Notes: generated by a model from the letters alone, not told the origin. DNA of 64,000 bases from Candidatus Woesearchaeota archaeon (GCA_043818175.1 JBDRGA010000016.1:14003-78002); one strand, 5' to 3'; positions 36,660 to 64,000 are shown, counted from the stretch's first letter. Numbers and translations: made by a program.

Positions 36660-39600
36660 TCACATCTTACTAATCTTTCCAGGCTTGGGATGATAGATAT
36701 CTCCCTTCCTGGTTAGCTTTTCTAAGATTTCTTCTGCCTTGTCCTGGTTGATGCTCTGGTTCAGGGCTTCCTGGATAACGTCTTCCGTCTCAATTACCTT
36801 GCCGTACGTTTCAGTCAGTTGATTAATAATCTCCTTGATTTGGTGAATCTGATTACGTTCAGAAGCAGGAATACCTCCAGTGAAACGGTCAATGTCAATC
36901 TTTCCCGTTTGAGGGTCCATTCCAATCTGTTGCAAGCAGTAATGAACCAGTTCAATCGCTCTTCGGGAGTCCTTCCTTCTAATTACAGTGTCCAATCTTG
37001 TTTTAGCTGAAGCTTCACTCAAACGAACAAGCGCTTCCAACTGACGAGCAGAAATCGGTACTGCTTTAACACCACCCTCGCCTCCACCAGAAGCACGCAT
37101 TTCAACGAAGTATCTTTGGATCTCTTCCTTGGCTTCATCGCTTAGAATGGGCTTGCAGCGTATCCTAGCATAACTCACGTACTTCTTGTAGAATTCAGTC
37201 TTCAGTTCAACCGTGTCAAGAGCGTGCTCATCCTGATGCAGGTCTAGGATGAAACTAGCCATCTGCTCGTCCTTGAACTTATCGGGCATGTCTTTCACTG
37301 CAAAGATTAGGTCAAAGCGATTAATCAACGTAGAAGGCAGTTCAATCTGTTTTCCAACCATCTCGTAGGGGTCAAAACGCCCGAATTTTGGGTTTGCAGC
37401 TGCGAGAACAGTTGTTTCAGCCCTCAATGTTGCCTGAATGTTCGCTTTAGAAATAGAAATAGTCTGCTGTTCCAAAGCTTCGTGCAAAGCACTAGTATCT
37501 TCTTTAGTCATCTTATCTAGTTCGTCAATACAACAGATGCCTTTGTTCGTTAAAGGCAAGGCTCCAGCTTCCAAAGCCCAACCACGAAGGAAATCATCTT
37601 TCACAACCGAAGCAGTATTGTGAACCAAAACACCGTCAACGATGAAATTATGCGAATCCTCCACAGTTAAGTCATACACAAAGTCAAACTTTGACTTCTT
37701 CAATTCAACAGATTTCACCTTTTCCCAGAACACATCGCTGTTTGCCAGCGCGAGAAGCTCGACGTCTTCTATTTGATTCTCAAGTACAATTCTCTGCAAC
37801 GCTTCTTTGCTCAGATTGGGATGCCATCCTGCCTTTTTGAGTGGAATCTTTCTAGATTGGAGAATCTCCTTCAACCGCTCAGAAACGCCAGGAACAACAT
37901 CAATGTTTGTATTGTGCTTGGTTTTTGAAATTAATGCCAGTTTTGCCTTCTTTTTGGGGTGGCGTAATGGAATCTCTTTTGCAAATGTCTCGATGTCCTT
38001 ACCTCTTATTGATAGAACCCATTTGTCCAGTTTTCCCTGAATCTTCGAATTAACACTCGGGCTTCTGGGTCTTAATCGTGCATGCACGCCATATCTTAGG
38101 AATGCAAGCTGAAGCTGCCGTGCGAGTTTCTCTGAACAAGTCGTGAACTCGATGCACGAGCTATTATGTCCTTTACTGACGTAAACAGATCCATCTGCGT
38201 CATATAGTCCTGCGATGTATGAAGCAAGAAGTTTATTTGAAAGGTGAAGGAGTGTATTGGACATAAATATTGAAGACGATTTGGGGCTTAGTGAAATTCC
38301 GAGAGACATAAGAATCTCTCCAACAATCTTTGATGCAACTCTGCTTGCCTGTGGTCTGGTATCTGATTCTGGTTGAGTATCACATGAAAGTTGGAATTCC
38401 TTCTCAAACAAGTTTCTGAATGTGTCAAGAATGGTTGGTTCGCCGTTTGACAACCTAATGGCTATTGAATCTCCTGGAGTTTTTCTCATGTCGCCGTCGC
38501 CTGCGATGAGCCCTGCAACATGGAGAAATTCTTTTGAGAGATTGATGGGCACTTTGTGCTTCTTCCCGTTCCAGAGACTCACTGTCTGTACTCTGTGTTT
38601 CCAAGGAATCCTCGCAGCTTCAGCAAGGAGTCTCAGGTCATTAAGCTTGATGGTCCCTCTGGTTTCTGGATTCACCCAATGATGATATAGTTGGTTCTCG
38701 TTTATGCAAAGCGCGTTGGCTGCCTTTCTCACAGAACCGTATATTTCTTTCAGAATCTCAACAGATTCCTTGACCAAATCCTCAACGCCGCGCACAACAG
38801 GATTGCTCGCAATAAGGTCAACTGGGCTTTGCTCATTGACTGTGCCTCCAATTAGTTTTCTGGGTGTTCCGACAAAAGTGCCAGTTGTTATCTCAGAACT
38901 CTTAGTCCAAGACGGCTTACCACCATTTAGTACGAAGAGTTTCGTATTTGCAGTAAGTTGAACCCGTTTTCCGCTATCAAGCGTTACCTCATACATGAAT
39001 TCAGGAGCCTCAAGACGCCATATTGCAGAGGGATGCTTAGAATGTAACTTCATGTCTTTAGATAAAGACTGTATTTTGACATCTGTCACGTTATCTCTTT
39101 TCCACACACCTGATCTGAACTCAAGAGGAAATTCCATTCTTGATTCAACAACCTCTTGGATTGTTTCACATCCTCCTGGATTTGTAAGAACCATGCTTTC
39201 AGGGCTCACGCACAATCCAGCACCGGACGCACCTTTACCAGAAACAAACCTTGATTTAGGCGCAACTTTAGCAATTCTCCTCAACAATTGTGATTTTCCC
39301 GAACCAGGGTCTCCAATGAGCAGAATATGTATGTCTCCTCTCCTAACTACACCATCGGTCATGCTCTTTCTCACACCACCAAACAATTGCAATAACAGCG
39401 CTTCCTTGATTTTATCGTGACCGTAAATGCTTGGAGCTAAACTACCAATCAATGATTCGTAAACATCAGGCCTTTTGGCGAAATCCTCTATTCCAGCCAG
39501 TTCTTCAGGAGAAATAGCCATCTCAGAGAAATCTTCAAGCACTGGTTCTACAAAATTTGCTTCGCACATCAAATCAAAGCGAGTGCTCTGTCCGCCTTGT

Positions 39601-40295
39601 TGCAAGGTAATTGGAACCTCTTTTACGATTCCAACAACCTTTATCTTTGCACCAGGATTGGTTCTTTTCTCTGTTATTGGAGAGACAAGATCGTTCTTCA
39701 GGAAGATGTTGAACCTTTTAGGTTGCTCTCCGCCTTCTAATTCGTCAGGAGACTCTTCTAAAGTAATCTTCTGCGCATCGACCAGTTCCTTACCAATCAA
39801 ACGGAACTTACCTTTTCTACCACAACCACATCTTGTTGGCTCCTTGAATTTAGTATCGAGCTGTAGCACCGCAATAATATTGCCACAGGAAGGGCATTCA
39901 AAACGAGCAGCCGTTACTTGAGGCCGGACATCTGTCTTCTGCTTTACGATACCCTGCATCTCGAGAAATTTGCCAATATGTCTGGAACGAATATCTCTGA
40001 TCATAATCTGCTGACTTTCAGGAAGGTCCTTGAATCGTATCTGGAAGTTCTTTACTTCTCCAGCAAGATCAAACCGGTCAACGGCAGCAGAAGCAGCAGC
40101 CAGTACTTCTTCAGGGTCTTCGAGCAGCAGGTCAGCTAGTTCAGGATTGAACTTCGCGAGCTCTCCAAGCTCCACAACGAGAAACTTATGCCCCTTCGAG
40201 GCCTGTTTTACCAGGTCTGCGTAATGATGTTCCTCGAGGAACTTGTGGAAAAGCTCAATCTGCTTGGCTGCATCGATTGTTTGAGCTTCCTGCAT
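36660..40295 (-). CDS. mcm: MCM replicative helicase interrupted by one large intein
   Basis: N-terminal Zn motif CPSCGN...CGCG, Walker A GDPGSGKSQ, Walker B CCIDELDKM, sensor and arginine-finger regions, and a C-terminal wH. It is 1211 aa, of which ~679 aa is extein. Confidence 0.88.
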   Translation of the reverse strand: MQEAQTIDAAKQIELFHKFLEEHHYADLVKQASKGHKFLVVELGELAKFNPELADLLLEDPEEVLAAASAAVDRFDLAGEVKNFQIRFKDLPESQQIMIRDIRSRHIGKFLEMQGIVKQKTDVRPQVTAARFECPSCGNIIAVLQLDTKFKEPTRCGCGRKGKFRLIGKELVDAQKITLEESPDELEGGEQPKRFNIFLKNDLVSPITEKRTNPGAKIKVVGIVKEVPITLQQGGQSTRFDLMCEANFVEPVLEDFSEMAISPEELAGIEDFAKRPDVYESLIGSLAPSIYGHDKIKEALLLQLFGGVRKSMTDGVVRRGDIHILLIGDPGSGKSQLLRRIAKVAPKSRFVSGKGASGAGLCVSPESMVLTNPGGCETIQEVVESRMEFPLEFRSGVWKRDNVTDVKIQSLSKDMKLHSKHPSAIWRLEAPEFMYEVTLDSGKRVQLTANTKLFVLNGGKPSWTKSSEITTGTFVGTPRKLIGGTVNEQSPVDLIASNPVVRGVEDLVKESVEILKEIYGSVRKAANALCINENQLYHHWVNPETRGTIKLNDLRLLAEAARIPWKHRVQTVSLWNGKKHKVPINLSKEFLHVAGLIAGDGDMRKTPGDSIAIRLSNGEPTILDTFRNLFEKEFQLSCDTQPESDTRPQASRVASKIVGEILMSLGISLSPKSSSIFMSNTLLHLSNKLLASYIAGLYDADGSVYVSKGHNSSCIEFTTCSEKLARQLQLAFLRYGVHARLRPRSPSVNSKIQGKLDKWVLSIRGKDIETFAKEIPLRHPKKKAKLALISKTKHNTNIDVVPGVSERLKEILQSRKIPLKKAGWHPNLSKEALQRIVLENQIEDVELLALANSDVFWEKVKSVELKKSKFDFVYDLTVEDSHNFIVDGVLVHNTASVVKDDFLRGWALEAGALPLTNKGICCIDELDKMTKEDTSALHEALEQQTISISKANIQATLRAETTVLAAANPKFGRFDPYEMVGKQIELPSTLINRFDLIFAVKDMPDKFKDEQMASFILDLHQDEHALDTVELKTEFYKKYVSYARIRCKPILSDEAKEEIQRYFVEMRASGGGEGGVKAVPISARQLEALVRLSEASAKTRLDTVIRRKDSRRAIELVHYCLQQIGMDPQTGKIDIDRFTGGIPASERNQIHQIKEIINQLTETYGKVIETEDVIQEALNQSINQDKAEEILEKLTRKGDIYHPKPGKISKM
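37617..39212 (-). mobile_element. MCM intein (~532 aa) with a LAGLIDADG homing-endonuclease domain
   Basis: Inserted after SGKGASGAGL. It begins CVSPESMVL and ends GVLVHN, with T as the +1 extein residue. Two LAGLIDADG blocks are present (VAGLIAGDGDM and LASYIAGLYDADGSV). Coordinates are derived by residue counting, +/- a few nt. Confidence 0.8.
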
Positions 40296-42889: not shown

Positions 42890-43222
42890 TTAAGCTCCTT
42901 GGCTGTAACCCGTTCTCCACAAATCGAAGTTGAAGAACGTCAGGAATTGTGCCTGTAATTCAGGACGCGTGCCTAACCAATCATGCAACCTTTGGGTATA
43001 GCAATAAGGACAGACACCCATAGGGTCATGACACTTAATGCACTTCGTATTGCCATTCGTGGACTGCATCTCACTTGACACGTCCAGAAACGTGGGCAAT
43101 AGCCCTGGCGCTTCCCACTGGAGCCACTCATGCACGGCTTCCTGCAAACAAACCGTGCATAATGGTGTCGTTATTACTTCTTCGCACACATTGCACGGCA
43201 TGGGTCTCTCCTCCAGAGCCAC
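42890..43222 (-). CDS. Small double zinc-ribbon protein with an internal repeat
   Basis: CNVC...CTVCLQEAVHEWL and CIKC...CPYCYTQRLHDWL are two copies of a CxxC-x8-CxxC-x5-H[ED]WL module. Confidence 0.45.
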   Translation of the reverse strand: MALEERPMPCNVCEEVITTPLCTVCLQEAVHEWLQWEAPGLLPTFLDVSSEMQSTNGNTKCIKCHDPMGVCPYCYTQRLHDWLGTRPELQAQFLTFFNFDLWRTGYSQGA

Positions 43223-43497: not shown

Positions 43498-43965
43498 ATG
43501 CGCACAAACGCTCACTTCATCATAACTGCGATATTCGCGTACTTCGTGTTCCGAAACACGCCATTGTACACTCTTGATACTGTTCTCATAATGCTAGCAA
43601 CAACAATGCTGATAGACTTTGACCACTTGATCAACTATGTTGTGGGGAAGAGGAGTATGAACATCAAGCGCTTCGTGAAGTATCACTTCTTCACGTACAC
43701 GCACAAAAAACAATTGCTTTATCCGTTTCACACACTGGAGTTTCAGGCAGTTCTGTTTCTCTTGGGATTCCTAGACATACGATTCTTCATAGTATTTGTA
43801 GCGTGCATCTCGCACATAGTTGCGGACATAGTTCCGTACATGTGGCATCACGGCTCAATACTTTCAATAAGGCCTTGGCTGATGACGTGGCACATAAGAA
43901 ATCAATGGTGGAAACGTGCACATATCCATAGAAGCGGAAAACCGGACTACCTCTATACACTTTGA
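43498..43965 (+). CDS. Membrane-bound metal-dependent hydrolase-like protein (DUF457/YdjM-like)
   Basis: Polytopic membrane protein with His/Asp motifs in helices (LIDFDH, SHIVADIVPYMWHH), characteristic of the YdjM/DUF457 family. Confidence 0.5.
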   Translation: MRTNAHFIITAIFAYFVFRNTPLYTLDTVLIMLATTMLIDFDHLINYVVGKRSMNIKRFVKYHFFTYTHKKQLLYPFHTLEFQAVLFLLGFLDIRFFIVFVACISHIVADIVPYMWHHGSILSIRPWLMTWHIRNQWWKRAHIHRSGKPDYLYTL

Positions 43966-44110
43966 GGGCAGTGCAAAAGAGCTTTGCAAGAAGCTAGGGG
44001 TTAACGTAGAAACTGTGCTGGTAATACAGAACGGTACTTTAGTTGGAGATGATACTTTATTGAAAGATTCTGACAAGATTGAGTTGTTGAGCGTTGTTAG
44101 CGGGGGATAG
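43916..44110 (+). CDS. ThiS/MoaD/SAMP-like small ubiquitin-fold protein ending in Gly-Gly
   Basis: 64 aa; beta-grasp pattern (ISIEA..TSIHFEG..AKELCKKLGV..VLVIQNGTLV..DTLLKDSDKIELLSVVSGG) with a C-terminal GG; overlaps the upstream ORF by ~50 nt. Confidence 0.65.
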   Translation: MHISIEAENRTTSIHFEGSAKELCKKLGVNVETVLVIQNGTLVGDDTLLKDSDKIELLSVVSGG

Positions 44111-44114
44111 AGAT

Positions 44115-44948
44115 TCAAAGCGTCCTGAGCACTTCTGGATATCGTTCTCTCAAGATTAGATGATTCGCGTACATCATCCTTCCAAATGGAGTTCCTGCAC
44201 GCACTTCTGCAATCACTTCTTGTGGGGTGTATTGTTTTATGGTTTTTCTGGACTTTAATGTCAAGAAACCAGATTCCTTAGAAACCAACCTGATGATTTC
44301 GTCCAGAAGTTCGGGTTTCAGAACGTCTCTCTTCACAATTAGAAGTTCTCCGTGTTCGCCTTCTTGCACCCAGGGATTAATAGGGGCTGCGCTGTAGATG
44401 CTGAAGCCAAGCCTTTCGAAGGATCTGGGAGTGTGGTGTTTTGGAGATGACCAAACGCCTCCAAAATATCCATCTGCTCTTCTGGCAGGGTCCTCAGAAT
44501 GTTCGATTTCTTGTTCCCACGCTCTTCTTAGCGCGTGTGCAAGGCCTTGACTCTTGTAAGCTTCACGTACATTCAGATGAATCTCAGGTAAGCCTTTTGG
44601 CATTTTCGGAGAATGTTTTATGAGTGCGGGCATGGTTTCTATGAACTTGCGCATGTCTGCTGACTCATCCCCAGCATACACTCCTGTTGCACCATAAATC
44701 AGCATTTTAGCAACGTCACCAAGAAGGCTGAAAGTCATTGGCTTTGTATGCGCTCCAAGAAGATATCCCTGCACTTCTCCGTTTTCAACCCCAACAAAAC
44801 CCCATCCTGCTTTCAAATGCTGATGTAATACAGAATGAACAAATGGCTCCGCAAACTCTTCAGGAATGGGTCTGCCACCTGCGAAGGTTTCCTGGCATAT
44901 CTTTTCGATGCCTGGTTTGTGTTCTGGCTTGTATGGTACTACTTGCAT
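44115..44948 (-). CDS. GNAT-family N-acetyltransferase with a C-terminal extension
   Basis: GNAT motif A-like IHLNVREAYKSQGLAHALRRAWEQ and motif B-like SFERLGFSI. Confidence 0.5.
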   Translation of the reverse strand: MQVVPYKPEHKPGIEKICQETFAGGRPIPEEFAEPFVHSVLHQHLKAGWGFVGVENGEVQGYLLGAHTKPMTFSLLGDVAKMLIYGATGVYAGDESADMRKFIETMPALIKHSPKMPKGLPEIHLNVREAYKSQGLAHALRRAWEQEIEHSEDPARRADGYFGGVWSSPKHHTPRSFERLGFSIYSAAPINPWVQEGEHGELLIVKRDVLKPELLDEIIRLVSKESGFLTLKSRKTIKQYTPQEVIAEVRAGTPFGRMMYANHLILRERYPEVLRTL

Positions 44949-45069
44949 TTTCTAGGGAAAGGAAACGCACTTATAAGCATTTTCTTTTTGTTGTCTCTCT
45001 ATAGTGATACTTTTGTGTTGGGTGTGTTGTTCGCAGCACATATAAGAACAGGCGAGAACTCTCAAAGTT

Positions 45070-45936
45070 ATGCAATGCTGCGTGTGTAACAACAATGCAA
45101 TCATCACGAAGCCAGAGCCGCGCTGTTCTGATCACTTCAAGGAATACTTTGAAGCGACTGTTAAGGACACGATTAAACGCTTCTCGTTGATTTCGCCAGG
45201 TGAGAAGATTGTTGTTGCAGCTTCCGGAGGAAAGGACAGTATGACCTTGTTATATTTGTTGCATTCTTTCGGGTATCACGTTCACGCGCTGGCCGTAGAC
45301 GAGGGCATCAAAGGATACCGAGACGAAACTCTTGAGCACCTTAGAGCATTCTGCACGCCAAGAAGCATACCTTTGAAGATTGTTTCGTTCAAGGAAACAA
45401 CGGGAAAGACGTTGGACGAGATGAAGCCAGAACACCCATGTAGTACTTGTGGCGTACTAAGAAGAAAGGCTCTGAACGATAATGCAGAAGGATACGATAA
45501 GATTGCATTAGGACATAACTTAGATGATGAAGCCCAAAGCATTCTTATGAACCTGTTCAGGAACCAGATACCTTTGCTCTTTCGCTTGGGACCAATGAGC
45601 AAAACACAAGAAGGCATGACTCCAAGGATAAAACCTTCGTATTTTCTTTCTGAAAAGGAAGTCGCAACGTACGCACACCTGATGAAACTAAGTCCAGCAT
45701 GGAGCGAATGCCCGAATGCAATTGATGGTTACCGTTCAGACGTGAGAAACTGGCTGAACAAACAGGAAGAAGAACATTCTGGCTCTAAGAGAAACATAAT
45801 CAACTGGTTCCTTAAGATAAAAGAAGAAAAGATTCTGGAAGAAAAAGAAGCAAAGAAATGCGCTAAGTGCGGGGCGCCGAGCTCTGCAGAACTATGTCGC
45901 GCGTGTCAACTTCAAGTTAAACCTACTCGAGTTTAA
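45070..45936 (+). CDS. ncsA: tRNA 2-thiolation PP-loop ATPase (TtuA/NcsA/Ncs6 family)
   Basis: PP-loop SGGKDS, an N-terminal CxxC...C zinc finger (CCVCNN..C), a central CSTCG and a C-terminal CAKCG...CRAC zinc finger. Confidence 0.8.
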   Translation: MQCCVCNNNAIITKPEPRCSDHFKEYFEATVKDTIKRFSLISPGEKIVVAASGGKDSMTLLYLLHSFGYHVHALAVDEGIKGYRDETLEHLRAFCTPRSIPLKIVSFKETTGKTLDEMKPEHPCSTCGVLRRKALNDNAEGYDKIALGHNLDDEAQSILMNLFRNQIPLLFRLGPMSKTQEGMTPRIKPSYFLSEKEVATYAHLMKLSPAWSECPNAIDGYRSDVRNWLNKQEEEHSGSKRNIINWFLKIKEEKILEEKEAKKCAKCGAPSSAELCRACQLQVKPTRV

Positions 45937-46177
45937 TCTTGATCTTTTTGCCTTTGAGTTTTGCCTCAATTGCGGGAGCGACAGTTTGGCCTTGGAAAGT
46001 TGTCACGTCAAATTCTTTCATGAATTTCTTGGTAACACTTTCAGAACCAGTCACGATATAGATGCCATTCTCCAGAAGAATAGCGACTCCATTATTTGCT
46101 GCGTTAGTGACACTGCTAACTTTTGATTCCATTTCTTTTCCCATATGATCACCTTTACTTTGTTGTTTCCAAATCAA
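45923..46177 (-). CDS. Hypothetical small protein
   Basis: 84-aa ORF immediately downstream of two paralogous small membrane proteins; no motif. Confidence 0.35.
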   Translation of the reverse strand: MIWKQQSKGDHMGKEMESKVSSVTNAANNGVAILLENGIYIVTGSESVTKKFMKEFDVTTFQGQTVAPAIEAKLKGKKIKIKLE

Positions 46178-46451
46178 TTTTTATTCCGACAACCCATTTG
46201 GCGAATACATTGTAGAGCCACGCGCCTATTATTCCGGAGACGAAGCCCATTATTCCGTATAGTATGATGTACAGGATGCCCGCTATCAAAACACCAAGCG
46301 CAATCCAATAACCATAATTCTGGCCCGCAAAGCCAAGCGTCAAACCAAGCAAAATGATTGCGATGAATGCAACGACCAGAATGCTCATCATACCCAACGC
46401 GCAAAGCAATCCAGTCTTCAAAACGTCAATTCGTTTGAGCTCCTGTTTCAT
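46155..46451 (-). CDS. Small membrane protein, paralog A of a tandem pair
   Basis: 98 aa with 3 TM helices; shares YxIMGFxSxxIxGxLYNxxAK with the next ORF. Confidence 0.5.
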   Translation of the reverse strand: MKQELKRIDVLKTGLLCALGMMSILVVAFIAIILLGLTLGFAGQNYGYWIALGVLIAGILYIILYGIMGFVSGIIGAWLYNVFAKWVVGIKIDLETTK

Positions 46452-46765
46452 TCTTTCACCAGTTCAACACCAATACCACCTATCTTCTTTGCCCAGAAGT
46501 TGTAAAGGCCACCAGCAATAAATGCCGAAATAAAACCCATTATTGCATAAAAAATGGGGAAGATGATTATCGCCAGGGCGCCAAGCCCTAACATCCAGGC
46601 ATTCACAGGATCGACGGTTGCTGCAGTGTCAACGGGCACGCTGCTCATGGCCCACGAGAATAACGCGAAGAATATACCAACGATAATGCCAAGGACGGCA
46701 TACGTCAGGGTCATTATTTTTGCTAGAGACATTACATCAAGATGCTTTACAACGTTTCTTGTCAT
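46448..46765 (-). CDS. Small membrane protein, paralog B of a tandem pair
   Basis: 105 aa; clear sequence similarity to paralog A; overlaps it by 4 nt. Confidence 0.5.
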   Translation of the reverse strand: MTRNVVKHLDVMSLAKIMTLTYAVLGIIVGIFFALFSWAMSSVPVDTAATVDPVNAWMLGLGALAIIIFPIFYAIMGFISAFIAGGLYNFWAKKIGGIGVELVKE

Positions 46766-46811: not shown

Positions 46812-48284
46812 TCACAACGGTTCAACAGATTGAGGGAGGGTCTTCACGAAATTCAGGCGCTCTTCTCTGTTTATCTTGTCGCTCTTGAACATATAACGGC
46901 TCCTGCAATACCTGCAGCACGGTTCATTGTTCATTTTGAAGAATTTTGGGGGTATGTCCTCTTCCACAACACGAGAAATGCAGTTCTGGTTCTGGCACAG
47001 AAGATAGACAAACTTCTTCGTGATTGTTCCTTTGTTGATGTAATTTATTGTTGTCTCGGGCGATATCAAGGCCGCCCGTTTCAAGTCACGATCAGTCAAC
47101 GATGGAAGGTCCGTCTTCAATATGTTTGTGCTCTTTTGGGGAATGTGTGCAAATATGGCCAGCTTCCCTCGCTCCTTGAGCTTCAGTTGCATTCCGATTT
47201 CTAGTTCAAGTCCCTTTGCTATGTGGTCAATTACAACACCATCTTTTATGTCATTTATTATCCCTGGTTCTCTGTTCTTTGAACCATGTCTGAGCAGAAT
47301 GTTGTTTCCATTTTCCAACAAAGGATTCAGGATGCCTGAGAATTGAACAATTTCGGCGTCTTTGAACATACTGTAAAGAAGCGCTTTCCTCAGAAATATG
47401 CCATTCTCCGCCTGCTTGAAGAATCCCTGTGCATCGCTGAAGTAAACAGCATGGTCAATTTCTGCCAGTTCGCTGTTGACAGGCAAAGGATGCAAAACCT
47501 TTCCCTTGAATTCACGAACCCGTTCAAGTGTGATCCTGTACTTGTCCATTAAATCATGGACTTGAGAGGCAGAACTACCCATTCTCTCCAATTGAGGTCG
47601 GGTCATGTAGAAAACATCAACGTTCTTCATAACATCAACAACTTCAGCATGTCGAACGACTTTTACGCCTTTCTTAGCAAGGTGCTCTGTAAGTGAAGTG
47701 GGCATTCCAAGAAAATCCTCAGCACACCAATGAATCTCAACGTTATCATAATTGGCTAAAGCTAATGTCTGGGAATGTATAGTTCTTCCATGCGCTAGAT
47801 CACCTCCATAACCCACTTTTATTCCATCGAGCTTTTCTCTCAAAGTGCTCATCGTGAAAAGGTCAAGCAATGCCTGCGTGGGGTGCTCGTTCTTTCCATC
47901 GCCCCCATTAATAACAGGAATCTCAGAAACGTCAGCAGCCCACTGAACACTTCCATCTTTAGGATGTCGCATCACGATAGCGTCAGCATGATTGGCCTCA
48001 AACATCTTTATCGTATCTCTTATGCTTTCCTTCTTCGTTACGGACGTGCCCTCAATACCGCTGAAACCACCTGCTCTTCCACCAAGCTCTACAATTGCAG
48101 TTATGAAACTCTGCCTTGTCCTTGTGCTTGGCTCGTAGAAAAGGTTTGCAAGCCGGAAAGTGCGAGGAAGCTGTAGTGAATACCTCTTGCCAGATTCCTC
48201 AATTTGCTTCATCTTCCCGGCCAACGCGAGAAGCTTGTTGATTTCGTCCTTCGAGAAGTCCTGAATGGAAATTACATCCCCCAT
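46812..48284 (-). CDS. pyrBI: Aspartate carbamoyltransferase with fused catalytic (PyrB) and regulatory (PyrI) chains
   Basis: N-terminal ~310 aa carry STRTR, HPTQ and HPLP ATCase motifs. The C-terminal ~150 aa match PyrI (GVVIDHI..., zinc site CQNQNC...CCRYC). Confidence 0.8.
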   Translation of the reverse strand: MGDVISIQDFSKDEINKLLALAGKMKQIEESGKRYSLQLPRTFRLANLFYEPSTRTRQSFITAIVELGGRAGGFSGIEGTSVTKKESIRDTIKMFEANHADAIVMRHPKDGSVQWAADVSEIPVINGGDGKNEHPTQALLDLFTMSTLREKLDGIKVGYGGDLAHGRTIHSQTLALANYDNVEIHWCAEDFLGMPTSLTEHLAKKGVKVVRHAEVVDVMKNVDVFYMTRPQLERMGSSASQVHDLMDKYRITLERVREFKGKVLHPLPVNSELAEIDHAVYFSDAQGFFKQAENGIFLRKALLYSMFKDAEIVQFSGILNPLLENGNNILLRHGSKNREPGIINDIKDGVVIDHIAKGLELEIGMQLKLKERGKLAIFAHIPQKSTNILKTDLPSLTDRDLKRAALISPETTINYINKGTITKKFVYLLCQNQNCISRVVEEDIPPKFFKMNNEPCCRYCRSRYMFKSDKINREERLNFVKTLPQSVEPL

Positions 48285-57246: not shown

Positions 57247-60200
57247 ATGCGGGTCGGAGTCATCATTCCAGTACTGTTCTTGCTTCTTGTGGTTGTCTCA
57301 AGCGAGACACTTGCTGTTACTCCACCAGTTACGGCAGGAACGCCAAGTTATCCGTATGGGGCAGATGCGTGGAATGTCGCAACCCGTGGCGACAAGACAT
57401 CCAATCCAACAATATATTACGCTGGCGAAACCGTGAACGTTGGCAGTTTTCCGTTCAGCCGTTTGAGTGGTAGCGCAGATCAGTACTCGAGTATTCTTAC
57501 TAAAATAAACGATTATTCTACCATTGCAGGGGCGTGCTCACACAATTCAGAAAATGCAGAACAGTCAACAGACAGTAATGAGGGTGACTGTGCCAGAACA
57601 GGAGATAAATACCGCGAATTCTTTTGGCAAACTGAGGTATTCATCCCAGCACATGTAAAAAAAATTCGCCTCGTTGCGTGGGTTGACAATGATGCTGCAG
57701 TGTACATTGCACCATACACGCGGACAGGAAACACGTACAACTTTGACTTGTTGGACTTCAAACCTACAAGTAGTAAATCCATATTTTATTCTCCTGGAAA
57801 CGGGGGGAACATCGATGTTTCAAATTCAAAATATGGGAAAGGGCTTATACTTTGGGGTGGGTCATCGTGTCGGAGTGTAGCGTTTGGTTACGCTTTTTTT
57901 TGTAAGCCCGACACACCAACACATGCAGATTTAGTTCAGGGAGCCGACTTTCAACCAGGATGGAATGTGCTTGGAATTTGGTACAGGGACCATGAAGGGG
58001 GTGACCACCTAACAATCAAGATGCTTGACCCAGATAAGCCGGAGCCGGAAACAAGCGACATGCTCCTTGAAGGAATAAAGCTCAGAACAGACATGCCACT
58101 CATCTCATACCGAAGTGTATTCTCGGCAATAAGTACAAATTCCCTCGCGGACACAGTACCAGCCAAACACCAGAATGATGGTCGCTCGGTCAATTATATT
58201 TCACTCAGGCAGGCTATGGGTACTCGTGAAGGAGATATTTCTGGTGGGTGCTGGGACGGTATTGACAACGATGGAAACTGGATGGCTCCTAAAGACTTGA
58301 TAGATTCAGAAGGCAGAAATTATCCTGACGGAATAATTCAAGCAGCAGAACTGAAGGATCCAGTTACTGGAAGTTATTTGAATGATGATCATAAATTGCA
58401 GACGACAGAGTACACATACAATGGAACAATAATAAACAGACCACCAGTATATTACGACACAGAATACAAGACGCCGTCCGAAGGCAACTTACAGCCAAAC
58501 ATCGGAGAATACGGCGTTGACTGTTTGGACAAGAGTTGTGATGGTAAACCAGGACCGGGTGGCGTAACATGCAATTGGGCTGACCAGTCTTTATCTTATC
58601 CGACAGAATCAGATTGCACTGACGGCGAAGACAATGACTTCGATGGCAAAATAGACCTTCTCGACGAGGACTGCTTGAACGCGCAGTGTGGTATCCCTCC
58701 AGGCACAACAATCTCTCAAATAATTGACTCTTTGAATTCAGCAGAAGACACGTATGATGCTGGAGCATTAGATGGAAGTGACGCCTGCTGTGGGGATGAT
58801 TTGCCTGAGCTTGGATGTGCTTCTCCTGAGGGTCAGTGTTCTGGCACACTGAATGATTGTAGAGGAACACCTGTGGATGATTTTTCGAGGGTGTGTGCTT
58901 CTAAGAACGGGCCAGACTGTAATGCAGACTACAGGTGTGCTTGGGATGGTGACTATTGCTGGGAAGCGGGATGTTCCGACTTGTCTGTGGACGCGTGTAA
59001 AAAACTAGACGGGTGTTCTTTGAAAACGTGCAGTGATTATAATCATTCGACGTGTCTTAGTCCACAATGCTCATGGGAAGAAACATGTCCTGCAGGCACA
59101 CCTCAAACGTATACGACGCTTGGTGACCTCGGCTACATCACCCCCGACGGAAGGTACTTCTGTGGAAAGGACAGCAAAGATGGTGCCATAACATATGACG
59201 GCACTGGCTCTTGGAAATGGTGGGACGCGCAAGCTATGGGTTCTCCCTTCACGATACACGAAGTGAAACCAGAAACAGACGTAGCGAGCAATGGAGAAGC
59301 GTGGTATTATTGCACTGCGCCAGAGTTTGCCACAGACACAGAGCAAAAGGTTGAGAAATGGGCCATCTTGCCAGAACCAAGTTTTGTAACTGGAATTGTA
59401 TTTGGCCAGTATCAGCAGTGGCCCGATAGGTGCACAATCAACGAAACAACAAAGAAGTGCATACTAAACAGCGAACCCGATGGGTTTGCCGACTGTGATA
59501 TAAACAAGAACACCCAAATCGATCCAGGCGAGGACTGGAGATCGTTTGCGAGCGTATATGCTGGTGTTTATCCTCCTATTACCACAGGGTCATTGTATTG
59601 TTCTGATGGCATCGAGGGTTTTATGACTTTGTGCGACGCAATCAATCCAGAAAAGGGCAACTACCCTTGGCTTGCAAACATAGAGAAATGGAAGGATGCA
59701 GCACTCGAATGTGATAAAACTGAAACGTCAGTACAAAAATGTCCAGATGCCGGAACAAGCGACGCAACAGTTCCAAAACGAGGATGGCGTCCAGATTTCA
59801 ATCCAGGATGCACGCCGGAAAACACAGTATTCGCAGATGGAACTTCAGGTTGTGCAGACGGAATAGATAATGACTTTGATAATCTTGTAGACTGCAATGA
59901 CCGTCTGTGTGATGGGCTGCTGGGTCCAGATGGGCAGATCTGTGAGTTCCAAGGTGAGCTTAATTGTCAGGACAAACAGGATGATGACGGGGACACATTA
60001 ATAGACTGTTCAGACCCTGACTGTATATTCGAAGCGAGTTGCAGGTATGAATCACCAAAAGTAGCGCCACATTACCAGGCATTGCTTTGCTTGCAAGGCA
60101 ACAATCCAGAATATCCACAATTCCAGGAATGCTGTGGTGCGTCTGCTTGCTCAAATACAGACGCAATTCTTCTTGGAGCCGCAAAATTGTACGGACCTGG

Positions 60201-61740
60201 TACGACCGCTGAAGTGGCAATGGACTTTAACGAACTCGTAAACAGCGCGATTTTGGATAAAATTCGACCGATACGAACTACAAACAGCATTCCAATTCAG
60301 AGAATTGTCAGTGCAGGCGACACACTTGAATTTGACTACATAACAAACAATCCCGCGGGAAGCATCACGCTCACAGGAACAGCAAGCGGGACATATTCTC
60401 TCTGGGAAAATACCGTAAACAAACCAGCCAATTTCGGAATCATCACAGGATATTGGTGGCATGTGCGAATACCAATGGATACTTCTGGTGAGATATTGAG
60501 TGTCAAGTTCACAGCTCCGGCATACGTTGACAACATACAAATCGTTCCTGGTGATGCAGAAGGCGAACAAAGATATTGCTCGTACGGTGGTTCGTGGAAC
60601 ACAAGTCTTGTTGACCCAGCAACCTGCAACAGTGTTGTTGCTCTGGGATACGGAAGTTATGGTTGGACGGGAACAATGTGTTGTGGTGACAATACAAATG
60701 AAGAGTACTACAAAGACAGTAACGCAGGATGCTTTGCCCGAAACACAATATATGCAGGCCAGAGAGTTGGAGATGTCTTACACAACACGTCTTTGAATAA
60801 CCTGCTTTATTATGATGGAAAGTTCTGGGCGTGCGTTGAAAATGTCTCTGGTTTAAGCAGGGCCGTTGTGGGTGCAATAACCACTACTGAATCAAGGAAA
60901 ACTCCAAGCTTCACAATAAAATCCCAGTGGTACTGCGATCCGGACCACACTTGGAAAGTGCTGAAGGACCTGAAAGTTGAGAATGTCCTTGCAGGAAAAC
61001 TGGCAGACATGGGTGACGAGTCAGGAAAGTCATACACGCTCTTCTGTGACGATGAGCAAAGAAGCATTAACAACGTCGAATCAGTTAATCCCAGCACGCA
61101 AGGAGCATTCTGTGTGCTCACCGGACCCGAGACAGAAAATCAGAAAGAAGTGTTTGTTGGCTTCGTGCTTGACCGAAAAGCAGGCGCGAACATAAACGAT
61201 TACCTTACCTCTTTACAGGAGAACTATGTTCCAGAGTGGCAGGATGATGAATCTGAAATGATACCTGCAGATTACTGTGATGATGTAACAAATCCAAACG
61301 TAAACGAATTCTTCGAAGCATGCACGAATGGCGGAGTGAAGAACTACAAGGTCTACTATAACAAGGCATTTGGCATAGTCATAATTGGAAGAGAACCAGC
61401 ATCAACTAATTGGGCTGATTCCATGTGGCGAGCCGTCAGAAATTTCTTCAGGAATATATTCGGGTACGTTCCACCATCACTGGGACGCCCCGTGCTGCCC
61501 AGCGAGATACCGTCTCAATTCGAAAAACTATACTTACACGTACAAGATGGCAAGAGCATAGTGGGTGCGTATTACAATAATGCATTCCTTGTTAACTATA
61601 CTAACTATGATGGCACGGCAGTCCGCAGACTTGCTTCAGCCAATGGACTCACATACGATCCATCAAGCAACACGATATACTCAAAGCCAGGGGACTTGAA
61701 AGCATGGCAACAAGTAACTTCCGCACTGAGGCCGCGCTGA
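57247..61740 (+). CDS. Giant secreted Cys/Asp-rich surface protein (1497 aa) with CxDGxDNDxDxxxDxxDxDC repeats
   Basis: Signal peptide (VIIPVLFLLLVVVSSETLA). At least four copies of an acidic Cys-bracketed module are present: GGCWDGIDNDGNWM, CTDGEDNDFDGKIDLLDEDC, CADGIDNDFDNLVDCNDRLC and CQDKQDDDGDTLIDCSDPDC. Many additional Cys are present. Confidence 0.7.
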   Translation: MRVGVIIPVLFLLLVVVSSETLAVTPPVTAGTPSYPYGADAWNVATRGDKTSNPTIYYAGETVNVGSFPFSRLSGSADQYSSILTKINDYSTIAGACSHNSENAEQSTDSNEGDCARTGDKYREFFWQTEVFIPAHVKKIRLVAWVDNDAAVYIAPYTRTGNTYNFDLLDFKPTSSKSIFYSPGNGGNIDVSNSKYGKGLILWGGSSCRSVAFGYAFFCKPDTPTHADLVQGADFQPGWNVLGIWYRDHEGGDHLTIKMLDPDKPEPETSDMLLEGIKLRTDMPLISYRSVFSAISTNSLADTVPAKHQNDGRSVNYISLRQAMGTREGDISGGCWDGIDNDGNWMAPKDLIDSEGRNYPDGIIQAAELKDPVTGSYLNDDHKLQTTEYTYNGTIINRPPVYYDTEYKTPSEGNLQPNIGEYGVDCLDKSCDGKPGPGGVTCNWADQSLSYPTESDCTDGEDNDFDGKIDLLDEDCLNAQCGIPPGTTISQIIDSLNSAEDTYDAGALDGSDACCGDDLPELGCASPEGQCSGTLNDCRGTPVDDFSRVCASKNGPDCNADYRCAWDGDYCWEAGCSDLSVDACKKLDGCSLKTCSDYNHSTCLSPQCSWEETCPAGTPQTYTTLGDLGYITPDGRYFCGKDSKDGAITYDGTGSWKWWDAQAMGSPFTIHEVKPETDVASNGEAWYYCTAPEFATDTEQKVEKWAILPEPSFVTGIVFGQYQQWPDRCTINETTKKCILNSEPDGFADCDINKNTQIDPGEDWRSFASVYAGVYPPITTGSLYCSDGIEGFMTLCDAINPEKGNYPWLANIEKWKDAALECDKTETSVQKCPDAGTSDATVPKRGWRPDFNPGCTPENTVFADGTSGCADGIDNDFDNLVDCNDRLCDGLLGPDGQICEFQGELNCQDKQDDDGDTLIDCSDPDCIFEASCRYESPKVAPHYQALLCLQGNNPEYPQFQECCGASACSNTDAILLGAAKLYGPGTTAEVAMDFNELVNSAILDKIRPIRTTNSIPIQRIVSAGDTLEFDYITNNPAGSITLTGTASGTYSLWENTVNKPANFGIITGYWWHVRIPMDTSGEILSVKFTAPAYVDNIQIVPGDAEGEQRYCSYGGSWNTSLVDPATCNSVVALGYGSYGWTGTMCCGDNTNEEYYKDSNAGCFARNTIYAGQRVGDVLHNTSLNNLLYYDGKFWACVENVSGLSRAVVGAITTTESRKTPSFTIKSQWYCDPDHTWKVLKDLKVENVLAGKLADMGDESGKSYTLFCDDEQRSINNVESVNPSTQGAFCVLTGPETENQKEVFVGFVLDRKAGANINDYLTSLQENYVPEWQDDESEMIPADYCDDVTNPNVNEFFEACTNGGVKNYKVYYNKAFGIVIIGREPASTNWADSMWRAVRNFFRNIFGYVPPSLGRPVLPSEIPSQFEKLYLHVQDGKSIVGAYYNNAFLVNYTNYDGTAVRRLASANGLTYDPSSNTIYSKPGDLKAWQQVTSALRPR

Positions 61741-61775
61741 AATCTTTAAATAATCAAGTATGGCATAGACTAATA

Positions 61776-64000
61776 ATGCAACGCCGCGCGCAACTAACAC
61801 TTTTGCTTCTCGTAGGAATCATGCTGGTTCTTGCCTTCGGCTTCGTTCTGTATCTTAGAGGAATAATCGTTGAAGAAAGAATCAATGCACAGGCAGACAA
61901 AGCAATTCAGGGGTACTTACAAGCAGCTTCGGCATCAACATATGTATCAAGCTGCGTGACAAGAATAAGCGATGAAGCAATATACATGCTGGGAAGACAA
62001 GGAGGAGTAATATACAAGTCCCAGAACGGAACCATAGACCAGCAGACAAGAACATATGTTCCATTCGATGAAGCGGGAAAGCAATGGAACGTTACATACT
62101 CCCTGAGCAGATACGTCAACGATAATTGCGCAGTAACAAACCCACCAGAGTATCCTTATCCTGAAACACCAGTGAACAGACTGCTGGTTCCATTCACCCA
62201 GAGATTGAACAGTGGCCAGTGTCCAATCCCGCCAGGACTGTCGTCAGGGCCGGTTGGAAATTATACACTGCAACCATTATGCGATCCACAAGGTAAGAAT
62301 GGTATTGGCGCATCCACGAGGAATACTTATTTATGTATCATATCCAGTTATGGGGAAGAAAGTATCCAACTGCAACTCGAGAAGTACATAGAAAACCAGC
62401 TACCCCTCTGCGTAAACTTCACCCTATTCCAAGATATCACAGGAAACACAATCAACGTCACAGGACTTCCAAACGTTTCGATAACCCTTGGCCAGGATGA
62501 TATGTTGATTCAATCAATCTACCCGTTCACAGTAAGCCTGCACGGAGGCGAACCAATAACTAGACTAGTAACATTCGATGTGTCAAGAGACATTCCATTA
62601 AAACGAATTCATGAAACACTGAGCTACCTTCTAACATTGGACGCCAAGAACCTACATTTCAGCCCGACCGCAAACGCTACCAGAATTGCAATCAGACCCT
62701 TGCCAGAAATTGAGAGGTATAGGGACGTATGCACTACTTGTGTTGCTGAAAGGCACGACGACATCCTGAACCTAACGGACACAACAAGCAAAGTAAAGGG
62801 AGAACCATTCACATTCCTTTCCGCAATACAAAACAGGGCGCCGGTACTTGATTATATACACTTCTCCGAAGGAAACCCAGTACCACAACATTATGACCTG
62901 GTAATCCTGGAAGGCCTCACAATAGAACTCAGCCCCGAGGGGTACGACCCTGATGAGGATAATGCAAACAACTCACAGTATCTCATGTCCAAGAATTATT
63001 CATACAAAGGATGGAAAGCAGAATACGAACAGGAAAACAGCATTCCTACAGAATGGATGTGGAATGGCGTGTGGCGTGGCGGCACAGTAATCGCGGCGGG
63101 AAGAAGTTTCAACATTTCTCTGCTGGCAGACCTGATACTTTTCCCGTACTCAAACATATCCTGCTATAAGGATGCCACTTACAATATTGGACCAACACCA
63201 CCCTGTTCTGATTTAAGAAACATATGGGAAAACAGCCAAAAATTCATGCTCACAAAAAGGGAAGCAACGTACACCACAGGACCACCAGACATTGGTCCAC
63301 ATGAGGTCAAAATAATAATAAGAGAGGACTCAGGCCTCCTTGACTACCAGTTGCTTCACATCCTTGTTGCAGATTTATGTGCCAACGGCAGACAGGTATA
63401 CACCGAATTTGCTGGAAAGGATGCAAGCGTTGAAGACCCATACCTGCTCGAAAGCTGCAGCGTAACTCCCATGCCTGGATGGGACTACCTTTGGAACAGC
63501 AGCAAGGAAGGAGAACTGGGAAGACTGCCAGTGCTTAACTTCGGCAAGGACATTATGAACCCCCTTGAAAGCCCTTTCACGAAAACAGGAATGCACACCA
63601 TAACCCTTTGGATAACAGCACAGGACGGCCAGGTAAGCAATACAAGCATTAACGTTGAAGTGAAGCAGTGCATTCCATTCAATAACGGGCCTGGAGGCAT
63701 TCCGTACCCATACTCCACAGAAAGCGACCCATTCTTAGCGGACCATGTTTGCTGTGAGAGCAATGGAAACTTGAGGAATAAAAACTTCGCTTGTTATTCT
63801 TTTGATGAGAACTGGTGTTATCCTTCAGACATAACGCTTTCAGAATTTCCACCTCTTGATGTTGCAGTTAAAGAAGACCCACTTATTGAAAAGAAGATTT
63901 TGGATGCCGCCTCATCAGACTATCGAGGAACAAGCAAGTTTGAAGATGACGGTATAGAATTAACTCCCGGAAGAGCACTGCAAAACGACATCTTCAACCG
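61776..64000 (+). CDS. Second large membrane-anchored/secreted surface protein, 3' truncated by the window end
   Basis: The ATG at 61776 is followed by a TM/signal segment (LTLLLLVGIMLVLAFGFVLYL). An open frame of >740 codons with no stop runs to position 64000; it is absent from the ORF track only because it has no in-window stop. Asn/Thr/Cys-rich ectodomain. Confidence 0.6.
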   Translation, partial: MQRRAQLTLLLLVGIMLVLAFGFVLYLRGIIVEERINAQADKAIQGYLQAASASTYVSSCVTRISDEAIYMLGRQGGVIYKSQNGTIDQQTRTYVPFDEAGKQWNVTYSLSRYVNDNCAVTNPPEYPYPETPVNRLLVPFTQRLNSGQCPIPPGLSSGPVGNYTLQPLCDPQGKNGIGASTRNTYLCIISSYGEESIQLQLEKYIENQLPLCVNFTLFQDITGNTINVTGLPNVSITLGQDDMLIQSIYPFTVSLHGGEPITRLVTFDVSRDIPLKRIHETLSYLLTLDAKNLHFSPTANATRIAIRPLPEIERYRDVCTTCVAERHDDILNLTDTTSKVKGEPFTFLSAIQNRAPVLDYIHFSEGNPVPQHYDLVILEGLTIELSPEGYDPDEDNANNSQYLMSKNYSYKGWKAEYEQENSIPTEWMWNGVWRGGTVIAAGRSFNISLLADLILFPYSNISCYKDATYNIGPTPPCSDLRNIWENSQKFMLTKREATYTTGPPDIGPHEVKIIIREDSGLLDYQLLHILVADLCANGRQVYTEFAGKDASVEDPYLLESCSVTPMPGWDYLWNSSKEGELGRLPVLNFGKDIMNPLESPFTKTGMHTITLWITAQDGQVSNTSINVEVKQCIPFNNGPGGIPYPYSTESDPFLADHVCCESNGNLRNKNFACYSFDENWCYPSDITLSEFPPLDVAVKEDPLIEKKILDAASSDYRGTSKFEDDGIELTPGRALQNDIFN

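Follow-up and report, generated by a model that had tools for sequence, protein, structure and literature searches.

In the TtuA/TtuB and SAMP2/NcsA systems of tRNA thiolation, an E1-like enzyme adenylates the C-terminal glycine of a small sulfur carrier and converts it into a thiocarboxylate. The carrier thiocarboxylate passes its sulfur to the [4Fe–4S] cluster of TtuA, which activates the target uridine at C2 by adenylation and then exchanges the oxygen for sulfur. Thiolation by TtuA/TtuB and NcsA/SAMP2 has so far been well understood as a soluble pathway, and we know of no membrane or THUMP protein in the Thermus TtuA/TtuB or Pyrococcus horikoshii PH0300 systems. The m5s2U54 system of Thermus thermophilus comprises TtuA and TtuB together with TtuC, its E1, and TtuD. 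In archaea, the SAMP2/UbaA/NcsA system is accompanied by a JAMM desampylase (HvJAMM1 of Haloferax volcanii; JAMM1–SAMP2 of P. furiosus, 5lda), a metal-dependent hydrolase that acts on the GG terminus of the carrier.

Two further families are relevant here. YdjM/DUF457 proteins (PF04307; COG1988, "membrane-bound metal-dependent hydrolase") are small polytopic proteins with a conserved His/Asp set; E. coli YdjM is an inner-membrane protein of the SOS regulon. To our knowledge, no activity has been demonstrated for any member of the family, which we presume, from its Pfam clan, to be akin to zinc phospholipase C and P1 nuclease. The other family is typified by PH1313 of P. horikoshii, a ThiI-like THUMP protein whose structure was solved nearly two decades ago and whose activity is still unconfirmed (PMC9957541).

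This study concerns a locus from a Candidatus Woesearchaeota archaeon, located in a 64-kb stretch of DNA that is referred to below as the window. We read the locus as a lineage-specific form of a tRNA-thiolation operon conserved in Woesearchaeota and Nanoarchaeota; it combines a known thiolation system with a new element, a membrane protein that may be an unrecognized helper. Together with a degenerate ThiI-like protein encoded in the operon of relatives, such a helper would add unknown steps to thiolation in genome-reduced DPANN archaea, candidates being carrier recycling, tRNA delivery and membrane localization. The operon also provides testable contexts for two families without confirmed activity, YdjM/DUF457 in bacteria and archaea and the PH1313-type ThiI-like proteins.

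Organization of the locus

The four open reading frames (ORFs) proposed in an earlier note on this DNA were all confirmed. On the plus strand, the gene for a hydrophobic membrane protein of 155 aa (43498–43965; GenBank ABIA93_02645, annotated as a hypothetical protein of Ca. Woesearchaeota) is followed by a gene for a 64-aa carrier of the ThiS/TtuB/SAMP2 type (43916–44110, plus strand), which starts with GTG and encodes the C-terminus ...LSVVSGG. The two genes overlap in different reading frames, that of the carrier gene being +1 with respect to its neighbor's; the overlap, previously put at about 50 nt, is exactly 50 nt (43916–43965, plus strand). As also proposed, a gene on the opposite strand (44115–44948, minus strand; 277 aa), convergent with the carrier gene, stands between it and a divergent gene of the TtuA/NcsA family (45070–45936, plus strand; 288 aa, SGGKDS). 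In T. thermophilus, a gene for a GG-tailed carrier likewise lies beside that for a thiolase with a PP-loop, zinc fingers and a [4Fe–4S] cluster.

The GenBank record carries no annotation for the 64-aa ORF, and the tags of its neighbors, _02645 and _02650, follow directly on each other; a real sulfur-carrier gene was overlooked by the public annotation of this genome.

The sulfur carrier and its overlap with the membrane-protein gene

The earlier reading of the 64-aa ORF as a GG-tailed, ThiS/SAMP-like carrier is borne out by profile and PDB searches. The ORF passed the Pfam ThiS threshold (PF02597; 33.9 bits, cut-off 22.5, E = 4.6e-8) and matched Pfam SAMP2 with E = 1e-4, whereas the NCBIfam equivalog models ThiS, SAMP2 and MoaD all matched below their cut-offs. 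Its best solved relatives in the PDB search were P. furiosus SAMP2 (PF1061, 1rws/5lda; E = 5.9e-5), to which the carrier is nearest, and Thermus TtuB (5ztb; 5e-4). Residues 14–64 align with 1rws, 5lda, 5ztb and 5gha, pointing to a beta-grasp fold. Gly-Gly forms the extreme C-terminus (LSVVSGG, then the stop codon), as it does in all orthologues read.

The missing annotation, the GTG start and the +1 offset from the reading frame of the upstream gene might suggest an artefact, that is, a spurious ORF or a single gene split by an assembly frameshift. This explanation is effectively refuted, and we regard it as extremely improbable. The ORF scores above the Pfam ThiS threshold, and separate 64-aa orthologues with ATG starts, ending in LSV[VI]SGG at the equivalent position, are present at eight other, independent loci. 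The homologues of the membrane protein stop short of the overlap, and none of 125 is a fusion protein. In addition, an independent assembly, L001, shows the same two-ORF layout and counts as a ninth locus for the orthologue, whose ORF is cut there by the contig end. The orthologues, all of 64 aa, are 36–50% identical to the window protein and 36–62% identical over all pairs. A stop codon in the carrier frame lies closely upstream, so that the GTG at 43916 is the first possible start; an ATG occupies the homologous position in seven relatives, and the N-termini align as M-x-I-x-I-E.

The 50-nt overlap is found again in L001, a relative 72% identical, whereas the overlaps in other relatives are 4, 17 or 29 nt long and L056 has a 9-nt gap. 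Between the window and L001, the core of the membrane protein is identical at 106 of 139 positions, its tail (residues 140–155) at only 6 of 16, and the N-terminus of the carrier, encoded in the other frame of the overlap, at 11 of 17; most homologues of the 155-aa protein stop before this tail. The length of 50 nt is not in itself the conserved feature; it arises from a poorly conserved, lineage-specific C-terminal tail. The tight coupling of carrier and membrane-protein genes claimed earlier is nevertheless real and kept in relatives: the two genes overlap by 4–50 nt in eight of the nine loci with a carrier gene. The ORF is thus conserved and the overlap recurs, two of the points on which the earlier note had let its reading stand or fall. 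Co-transcription is implied by this clade-specific, co-directional and mostly overlapping arrangement, and the two genes are probably translationally coupled. The sequence GGTGGA (43907–43912) was considered as a conserved Shine-Dalgarno element of the carrier gene and dropped; L001 alone has it as well, and the other frame uses these bases for Trp-Trp, so that the motif is not evidence of a ribosome-binding site.

The TtuA/NcsA-family enzyme and other pathway components

The identification of the 288-aa protein as a TtuA/NcsA-type PP-loop/zinc-finger enzyme was confirmed. The PP-loop motif SGGKDS occupies residues 52–57 (Pfam PP-loop, E = 1.2e-15), and the PDB search returned P. horikoshii TtuA PH0300 at 1.2e-56, Thermus TtuA at 1.6e-44 and M. 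maripaludis NcsA at 3e-38. All three cluster cysteines of PH0300 are present, with C124, C127 and C214 aligning with its C128, C131 and C220, which we take to be the [4Fe–4S] ligands. Both zinc fingers also align with those of PH0300, namely an N-terminal CxxC..CxxH (C3/C6...C19/H22) and a C-terminal CxxC..CxxC (C264/C267...C276/C279), and Pfam zn-ribbon_14 matches at 3.6e-5. The NCBIfam model for Pyrococcus-type TtuA (NF049949) gave 3.1e-62 and 210 bits against an equivalog cut-off of 450, and that for NcsA (NF047749) 2.2e-48 and 165 bits against 500. The enzyme thus scores closer to TtuA (U54) than to NcsA (U34), with both equivalog cut-offs missed.

No E1-like gene (ThiF/MoeB/UbaA/TtuC) was detected by Pfam scans of about 50 ORFs of the 64-kb window, in agreement with the earlier note, nor by a motif search of the window and a phmmer search with an approximate MoeB query from E. 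coli; in this respect the window differs from the Thermus system, in which TtuC serves as the E1. Rhodaneses and cysteine desulfurases were likewise not seen among the scanned ORFs, and no ORF in the window or at the related loci contains the JAMM motif E...H[ST]H...S..D.

The YdjM-like membrane protein

The 155-aa protein had been labeled DUF457/YdjM-like. The protein itself does not match PF04307 at E <= 0.1, and its sole Pfam match is DUF6122 (E = 0.015; 16 bits, cut-off 27). The label holds, however, at the level of the superfamily. A word-index search found only the protein and one relative, and an exhaustive search of representative sequences yielded 125 homologues at E <= 1e-3, covering query residues of about 1–135. 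Among 60 aligned homologues, 26 match PF04307 (best 1.3e-7) and nine match DUF6122; precomputed PF04307 matches are recorded for P0012 and, weakly, for P0006, which belongs to the thiolation-linked clade described below. Through these homologues, the protein is assigned to the YdjM/DUF457 superfamily as a distant member.

Residues D40, D42, H43, H78 and D110 are invariant in the 60 aligned homologues, and H6, E81 and H106 are each kept in at least 90% of them, corresponding to the His/Asp set of YdjM/DUF457. The conserved core extends about 135–139 residues from the N-terminus and includes four hydrophobic segments; the AlphaFold2 model is all-helical (pLDDT 94.5). Loop 40–79 and the C-terminus each contain 7–8 Lys and Arg residues, whereas the two short loops have about 0.1, which by the positive-inside rule assigns the His/Asp/Glu set to the cytoplasmic face. 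This places the predicted polar site on the side of the membrane where the carrier and tRNA are. Similarity to zinc phospholipase C or P1 nuclease was not significant in comparisons with approximate query sequences.

Compared with YdjM/DUF457, the window protein is archaeal (DPANN), shorter, marked by its own signature residues and encoded in a tRNA-thiolation context. Our literature search found no link between YdjM/COG1988 and ThiS, TtuB or SAMP2, an apparent "DUF457" paper being a false match to DUF4579.

Conservation of the gene neighborhood

As the earlier note had proposed to check, the pairing of YdjM-like and carrier genes recurs in diverged related genomes. In a neighbor-joining tree, the thiolation-linked YdjM-like proteins appear near-monophyletic, forming one clade with a single unlinked intruder. 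Clade members occur at 12 loci from diverged Woesearchaeota and Nanoarchaeota (the window, L001, L002, L003, L004 (= L007), L005, L006, L054, L055, L056/57, L060 and L062/63), and in all 12 the YdjM-like gene is the same-strand neighbor of at least one of the genes for a ThiI-like THUMP protein, the carrier and TtuA. The full gene order in the clade is ThiI-like THUMP (PH1313 type), YdjM-like, ThiS, TtuA. Identities in the linked loci are 44–59% for TtuA and 36–62% for ThiS, and the YdjM-like proteins are 24–35% identical to that of the window. The clade carries the signature residues K70, W127 and H132, the last present in 82% of linked and 2% of unlinked sequences. The clade is small, with about a dozen members in 15 billion sequences, and could reflect no more than the descent of a single lineage of organisms.

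The THUMP protein is a fourth conserved partner that the earlier note overlooked. The window lacks its gene. In seven relatives, the gene immediately precedes that of the YdjM-like protein and overlaps it by 4–25 nt in six of these seven loci, L055 having an 8-nt gap. The protein matches PH1313 (PDB 1vbk) at 7.2e-36 and contains ferredoxin-like (ThiI_fer), THUMP and shortened PP-loop-like domains. At the position of SGGxDS it reads GGEASLLAA, TGKKSVFAA or KDEKDELAA, and this degenerate motif makes it unlikely that the protein adenylates tRNA itself. It is best matched as a ThiI-like protein of the PH1313 type rather than a true ThiI, and an operon link of such a protein to TtuB/TtuA has not been described before.

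In the wider family, about 48 loci (L008–L053, L058/59 and L061) have no ThiS, TtuA or THUMP gene within about 4–6 kb; a locus search with an alignment built around FHTLEF returned mostly such unlinked members. A PDZ-SecD/SecF gene adjoins the YdjM-like gene in 31 of the wider-family loci, and a lysine-biosynthesis operon does so in L058.

Functional interpretation

We infer that the YdjM-like protein is a functional partner of the thiolation genes, a reading to which we give an even chance. Conserved synteny without shared function is a serious competitor, although its probability falls clearly short of even. Under this explanation, the YdjM-like protein would serve membrane housekeeping, for example as a phospholipase-C-like or lipid/envelope hydrolase, a job presumably shared by its SecDF-linked relatives; its gene would have become wedged once between the ThiI-like and ThiS genes in a Woesearchaeota ancestor, and the stop/start overlaps would reflect only genome compaction. 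Lipid genes are present in the same block and keep this explanation open: a FabH-like gene adjoins ThiS in L005, L006, L055 and L062, in L006 and L055 with TtuA on its other side, and a CTP_transf_1-like gene is located upstream in L004–L006. Neither has a plausible role in thiolation, and their persistence indicates that synteny here can last without shared function. The membrane-related and other neighbors of the wider family (SecD/SecF, lysine operon) point the same way, as do the identical catalytic-looking residues of linked and unlinked members and the grouping of linked sequences in one clade apart from the intruder, which a single ancestral rearrangement predicts.

Several observations argue against mere synteny. 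The outer flanks have been reshuffled repeatedly (MCM/TBP, L34e/RFC, LemA/HtpX, KaiC-like/MFS), and the YdjM-like gene has still stayed with thiolation genes at 12 of 12 loci. Where ThiS is missing, it is the immediate neighbor of TtuA (L002) or retains just the THUMP gene (L003), and thus remains with whichever thiolation gene is left; the absence of both ThiS and TtuA beside it in L003 at the same time counts against the partner reading, as do the small size of the clade and the opposite-strand gene between ThiS and TtuA in the window. The YdjM-like gene is co-directional and overlapping, whereas three of the four loci with a FabH-like gene carry it on the opposite strand. Furthermore, H132, W127 and K70 are clade-specific residues in the cytoplasmic C-terminal helix.

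If the YdjM-like protein is a functional partner, it could be an accessory thiolation component at the cytoplasmic face of the membrane. The mechanism we prefer, itself unlikely on present evidence, is that of a metal-dependent hydrolase acting on TtuB. Such an enzyme would attack the carrier at its GG C-terminus, the role of JAMM, and would free TtuB from isopeptide, thioester or acyl-adenylate adducts for reuse; JAMM proteases perform this recycling in other archaea. The YdjM-like protein differs from JAMM in being all-helical and membrane-embedded, with no JAMM motif or fold, and could share its role by analogy only. The carrier already ends in GG, so that C-terminal processing is unneeded, which argues against a processing role. 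The processing or deconjugating role suggested for the membrane protein in the earlier note remains a matter of guilt by association.

Alternatively, the protein could be linked to thiolation without hydrolyzing TtuB. It might anchor the ThiI-like, TtuB and TtuA proteins at the membrane, or it might handle a metal or sulfide, for example providing iron or sulfur to the TtuA cluster or to TtuB during thiocarboxylation, in a host without the usual sulfur-relay enzymes. This is pure inference, and we consider it improbable. It would fit the THUMP linkage (seven loci), which is nearly as frequent as the ThiS linkage (nine loci), the ability of a His/Asp/Glu cluster to bind metal without hydrolysis, the lack of a visible E1, rhodanese or cysteine desulfurase in the window, and the automatic JGI name of one member, "predicted cation transporter". 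With four short hydrophobic helices in 135 aa, the protein is, however, small for a transporter.

Returning to the hydrolase reading, a broader and equally speculative extension is a DPANN-specific, membrane-tethered thiolation machine in which a THUMP tRNA adaptor and a YdjM-clade hydrolase would be obligate partners of TtuA/TtuB. The PH1313-type protein would be the tRNA-binding adaptor, and the YdjM-clade protein would free or recycle the carrier as a non-homologous replacement for JAMM. If true, this would for the first time place the widespread DUF457 superfamily in a functional setting.

The intervening gene

The 277-aa gene is an orphan outside the conserved module. A search of 5.8 billion proteins returned only the protein itself, no Pfam or NCBIfam model matched even at E <= 10, and no homologue was found at the related loci. 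A single-sequence AlphaFold2 model was unusable (pLDDT 36.8). The only hint in favor of the GNAT acetyltransferase label given in the earlier note is a weak match of residues 3–71 to an acetyltransferase in the PDB (4bmh, E = 0.069), so that a GNAT-like fold is no more than possible. As this opposite-strand gene separates TtuA from ThiS in the window, TtuA must have its own promoter there.

Genomic organization of the locus

The window, which derives from a metagenome-assembled genome of Candidatus Woesearchaeota (DPANN), encodes a 155-aa YdjM-like membrane protein (43498-43965, plus strand), a 64-aa ThiS-type protein (43916-44110, plus strand), a 277-aa orphan protein (44115-44948, minus strand) and a 288-aa TtuA-type thiolase (45070-45936, plus strand). 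All four ORFs were found at the positions reported in the earlier note, whose observation as a whole was confirmed. The ThiS–TtuA pairing is ordinary, as that note had expected of a SAMP–NcsA linkage. What is new is that a clade of the YdjM superfamily and a degenerate ThiI-like protein are kept in one co-directional string of overlapping genes. In GenBank the 155-aa and 277-aa proteins have identical entries, the hypothetical proteins ABIA93_02645 and ABIA93_02650 (103-kb contig), and the gene between them is absent from the public annotation of this genome; because the two locus tags are consecutive, the 64-aa ORF is unannotated.

The 277-aa protein retrieved only itself in the homologue search and matched no family in Pfam or NCBIfam, the sole hint being a weak acetyltransferase match (E = 0.069). 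At related loci this gene is absent and other, unrelated genes fill the ThiS–TtuA gap, placing it outside the conserved module. The opposite strand immediately ahead of the cluster carries a gene for a 110-aa Cys-rich protein with four CxxC motifs (42890-43222, minus strand), which showed no family match and no homologue at related loci.

The ThiS-type carrier and the TtuA-type thiolase

Judged by its sequence, the 64-aa protein is a genuine TtuB/SAMP2-type carrier. It passes the Pfam ThiS model (33.9 bits against a gathering score of 22.5), and its matches to the SAMP2, ThiS and MoaD models fall below their cut-offs. Its closest solved relatives are Pyrococcus furiosus SAMP2 (1rws, 5lda) and Thermus TtuB (5ztb, 5gha), with alignments extending through the terminal GG, in agreement with the GG-tailed ThiS/SAMP-like protein originally proposed. 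The small ORF is also conserved: at each of eight other loci the orthologue has a length of exactly 64 aa and ends in LSV[VI]SGG, those compared sharing 36-50% identity with the window protein. The reading frame is closed by a stop codon shortly before the GTG at 43916, which makes this codon the first available start; relatives carry ATG at the homologous codon, and the N-termini align as M-x-I-x-I-E.

The 288-aa protein was likewise borne out as a TtuA/NcsA-type thiolase, matching P. horikoshii TtuA PH0300 (1.2e-56), Thermus TtuA (1.6e-44) and M. maripaludis NcsA (3e-38). It carries the SGGKDS motif together with the two zinc fingers, and its C124, C127 and C214 align with the PH0300 cluster cysteines C128, C131 and C220. 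It misses both NCBIfam equivalog cut-offs, so its target may be U54 or U34. The C-terminal CxxC..CxxC zinc ribbon is present in the TtuA of the window and of the related locus L056, and is lacking in the TtuA-like proteins of L006 (4611-5354, 247 aa) and L055 (3130-3888, 252 aa).

The YdjM-like membrane protein

The 155-aa protein itself matched no YdjM model, its only Pfam hit being DUF6122 (E = 0.015). An exhaustive search returned 125 homologues, mostly of 130-150 aa and covering query residues of about 1-135. Among 60 aligned homologues, 26 matched PF04307 (YdjM) and nine matched DUF6122; the label "DUF457/YdjM-like" is therefore right at the superfamily level, by transitive homology. In this alignment D40, D42, H43, H78 and D110 are invariant, and conservation reaches at least 90% at H6, F77, E81 and H106.

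An AlphaFold2 model built from the 60-sequence alignment was all-helical (pLDDT 94.5), and a structure search with it found no solved structural relative. The protein has four hydrophobic segments. Lys plus Arg residues number 7-8 in loop 40-79 and likewise in the C-terminus, but about 0.1 in the two short loops, so that the N-terminus, long loop and C-terminus are predicted to be cytoplasmic, which would place the conserved polar residues at the cytoplasmic membrane interface. Membership of a common Pfam clan would make YdjM kin to zinc phospholipase C and P1 nuclease; a comparison with sequences of these enzymes did not confirm the relationship, the HxxxD motif alone aligning.

Gene overlap and conserved neighborhoods

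The 155-aa and 64-aa ORFs overlap by exactly 50 nt in separate frames. The shared stretch encodes the C-terminal ~16 residues of the YdjM-like protein, outside its conserved core, and the YdjM-like stop codon falls within a conserved Phe-Glu of ThiS. Compared with L001, a 72%-identical relative, the tail retains 6/16 identities against 106/139 in the core, and the ThiS N-terminus, read in the other frame, retains 11/17. The overlap is 4 nt in L004, L054 and L055, 17 nt in L005 and L062, and 29 nt in L006; L056 has a 9-nt gap. Given these variable overlaps and the poorly conserved tail, tight coupling of the two genes is conserved and the 50-nt overlap is not. The interpretation in the earlier note is partly supported: it stands for the carrier, the thiolase, the superfamily label and the coupling, and not for the overlap as a conserved feature.

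Close relatives of the YdjM-like protein were found at 12 loci. The order YdjM-like, ThiS, TtuA occurs in L004 (= L007, where, like in the window, MCM and TBP lie upstream) and L056/57; a minus-strand gene separates ThiS from TtuA in the window (277 aa), L006 (FabH-like) and L054 (PNPOx-like, with a THUMP gene ahead of the string). L055 reads THUMP, YdjM-like, ThiS, FabH-like, TtuA-like. THUMP, YdjM-like and ThiS are found in L005, with a ThiI-like C-terminus in the THUMP position in L062/63, and the YdjM-like gene stands between THUMP and TtuA in L002 and between THUMP and RFC in L003. The contig ends after YdjM-like and ThiS in L001 and after THUMP and YdjM-like in L060.

The gene upstream of YdjM-like in seven relatives encodes ThiI_fer and THUMP domains and a short PP-loop-like remnant (L002 47-787; L003 4232-5011; L005 2677-3585; L054 252-1085; L055 132-947; L060 450-1301; L063 3-287). 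It lies directly upstream, overlapping in six of the seven and separated by 8 nt in L055; the window holds no copy. These proteins match PH1313 (1vbk, 7.2e-36), and their PP-loop motif is degenerate, SGGxDS having been lost. The linkage suggests a possible TtuA/TtuB thiolation context for PH1313-type structural-genomics proteins, the activity of PH1313 being unconfirmed (PMC9957541).

In a neighbor-joining tree the linked proteins form one clade, sharing H132, W127 and K70, with P0015 as the sole unlinked homologue inside it. No ThiS, TtuA or THUMP gene lies within about 5-6 kb of the YdjM-like gene in L008-L053, or nearby in L058/59 (a lysine-biosynthesis operon) and L061; in the wider unlinked set it mostly comes after a PDZ-SecD/SecF gene (31 loci). 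Among linked genomes TtuA identity is 44-59% and the outer flanks vary.

Functional interpretation

Whether the YdjM-like protein is functionally linked to the thiolation genes appears evenly balanced. The main rival, inherited synteny, is somewhat less likely but a serious possibility, and it draws support from the other settings in which the wider family is found and from the persistence of lipid genes in the same block. Immediately downstream of ThiS there is a recurrent FabH-like (ACP_syn_III) gene (L005 4185-5021, minus; L006 3300-4535, minus; L055 1619-3088, plus; L062 783-1787, minus), lying between ThiS and TtuA where the contig reaches TtuA (L006, L055), and a divergent gene for a 222-aa CTP_transf_1-like membrane protein recurs upstream of the cluster (L004 4147-4815, L005 2016-2690 and L006 1965-2633; minus); the synteny block therefore includes lipid genes.

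The mechanism we prefer, itself unlikely, is that the YdjM-like protein would act as a cytoplasm-facing metal hydrolase recycling the GG terminus of the carrier. Among about 50 window ORFs, none was found to encode a JAMM enzyme, rhodanese, cysteine desulfurase or ThiF/E1, consistent with the earlier remark that no E1-like gene is nearby. A search of the available literature found no paper linking YdjM/COG1988 with ThiS, TtuB or SAMP2.

Other features of the window

The window also encodes an archaeal ribosomal-protein cluster, PolD, MCM, TBP and Orc1/Cdc6, and gave no tRNA or Rfam matches. Tandem genes for small membrane proteins of 98 and 105 aa (46155-46451 and 46448-46765, minus strand) share a 4-nt overlap, and their products resemble each other in the C-terminal half; neither has a significant family match. 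A 1497-aa Cys-rich secreted protein (57247-61740, plus strand) is followed by an ORF of >765 aa (61704-63998, plus strand) that runs past the window end and has no Pfam match. One 490-aa ORF (46812-48284, minus strand) is a fusion of the two aspartate carbamoyltransferase chains, catalytic (OTCace_N + OTCace) and regulatory (PyrI + PyrI_C). The MCM helicase ORF (36660-40295, minus strand) spans 1211 aa against 675 aa in the syntenic L004 orthologue, and the additional sequence in its middle resembles an intein that includes a region of homing-endonuclease type.
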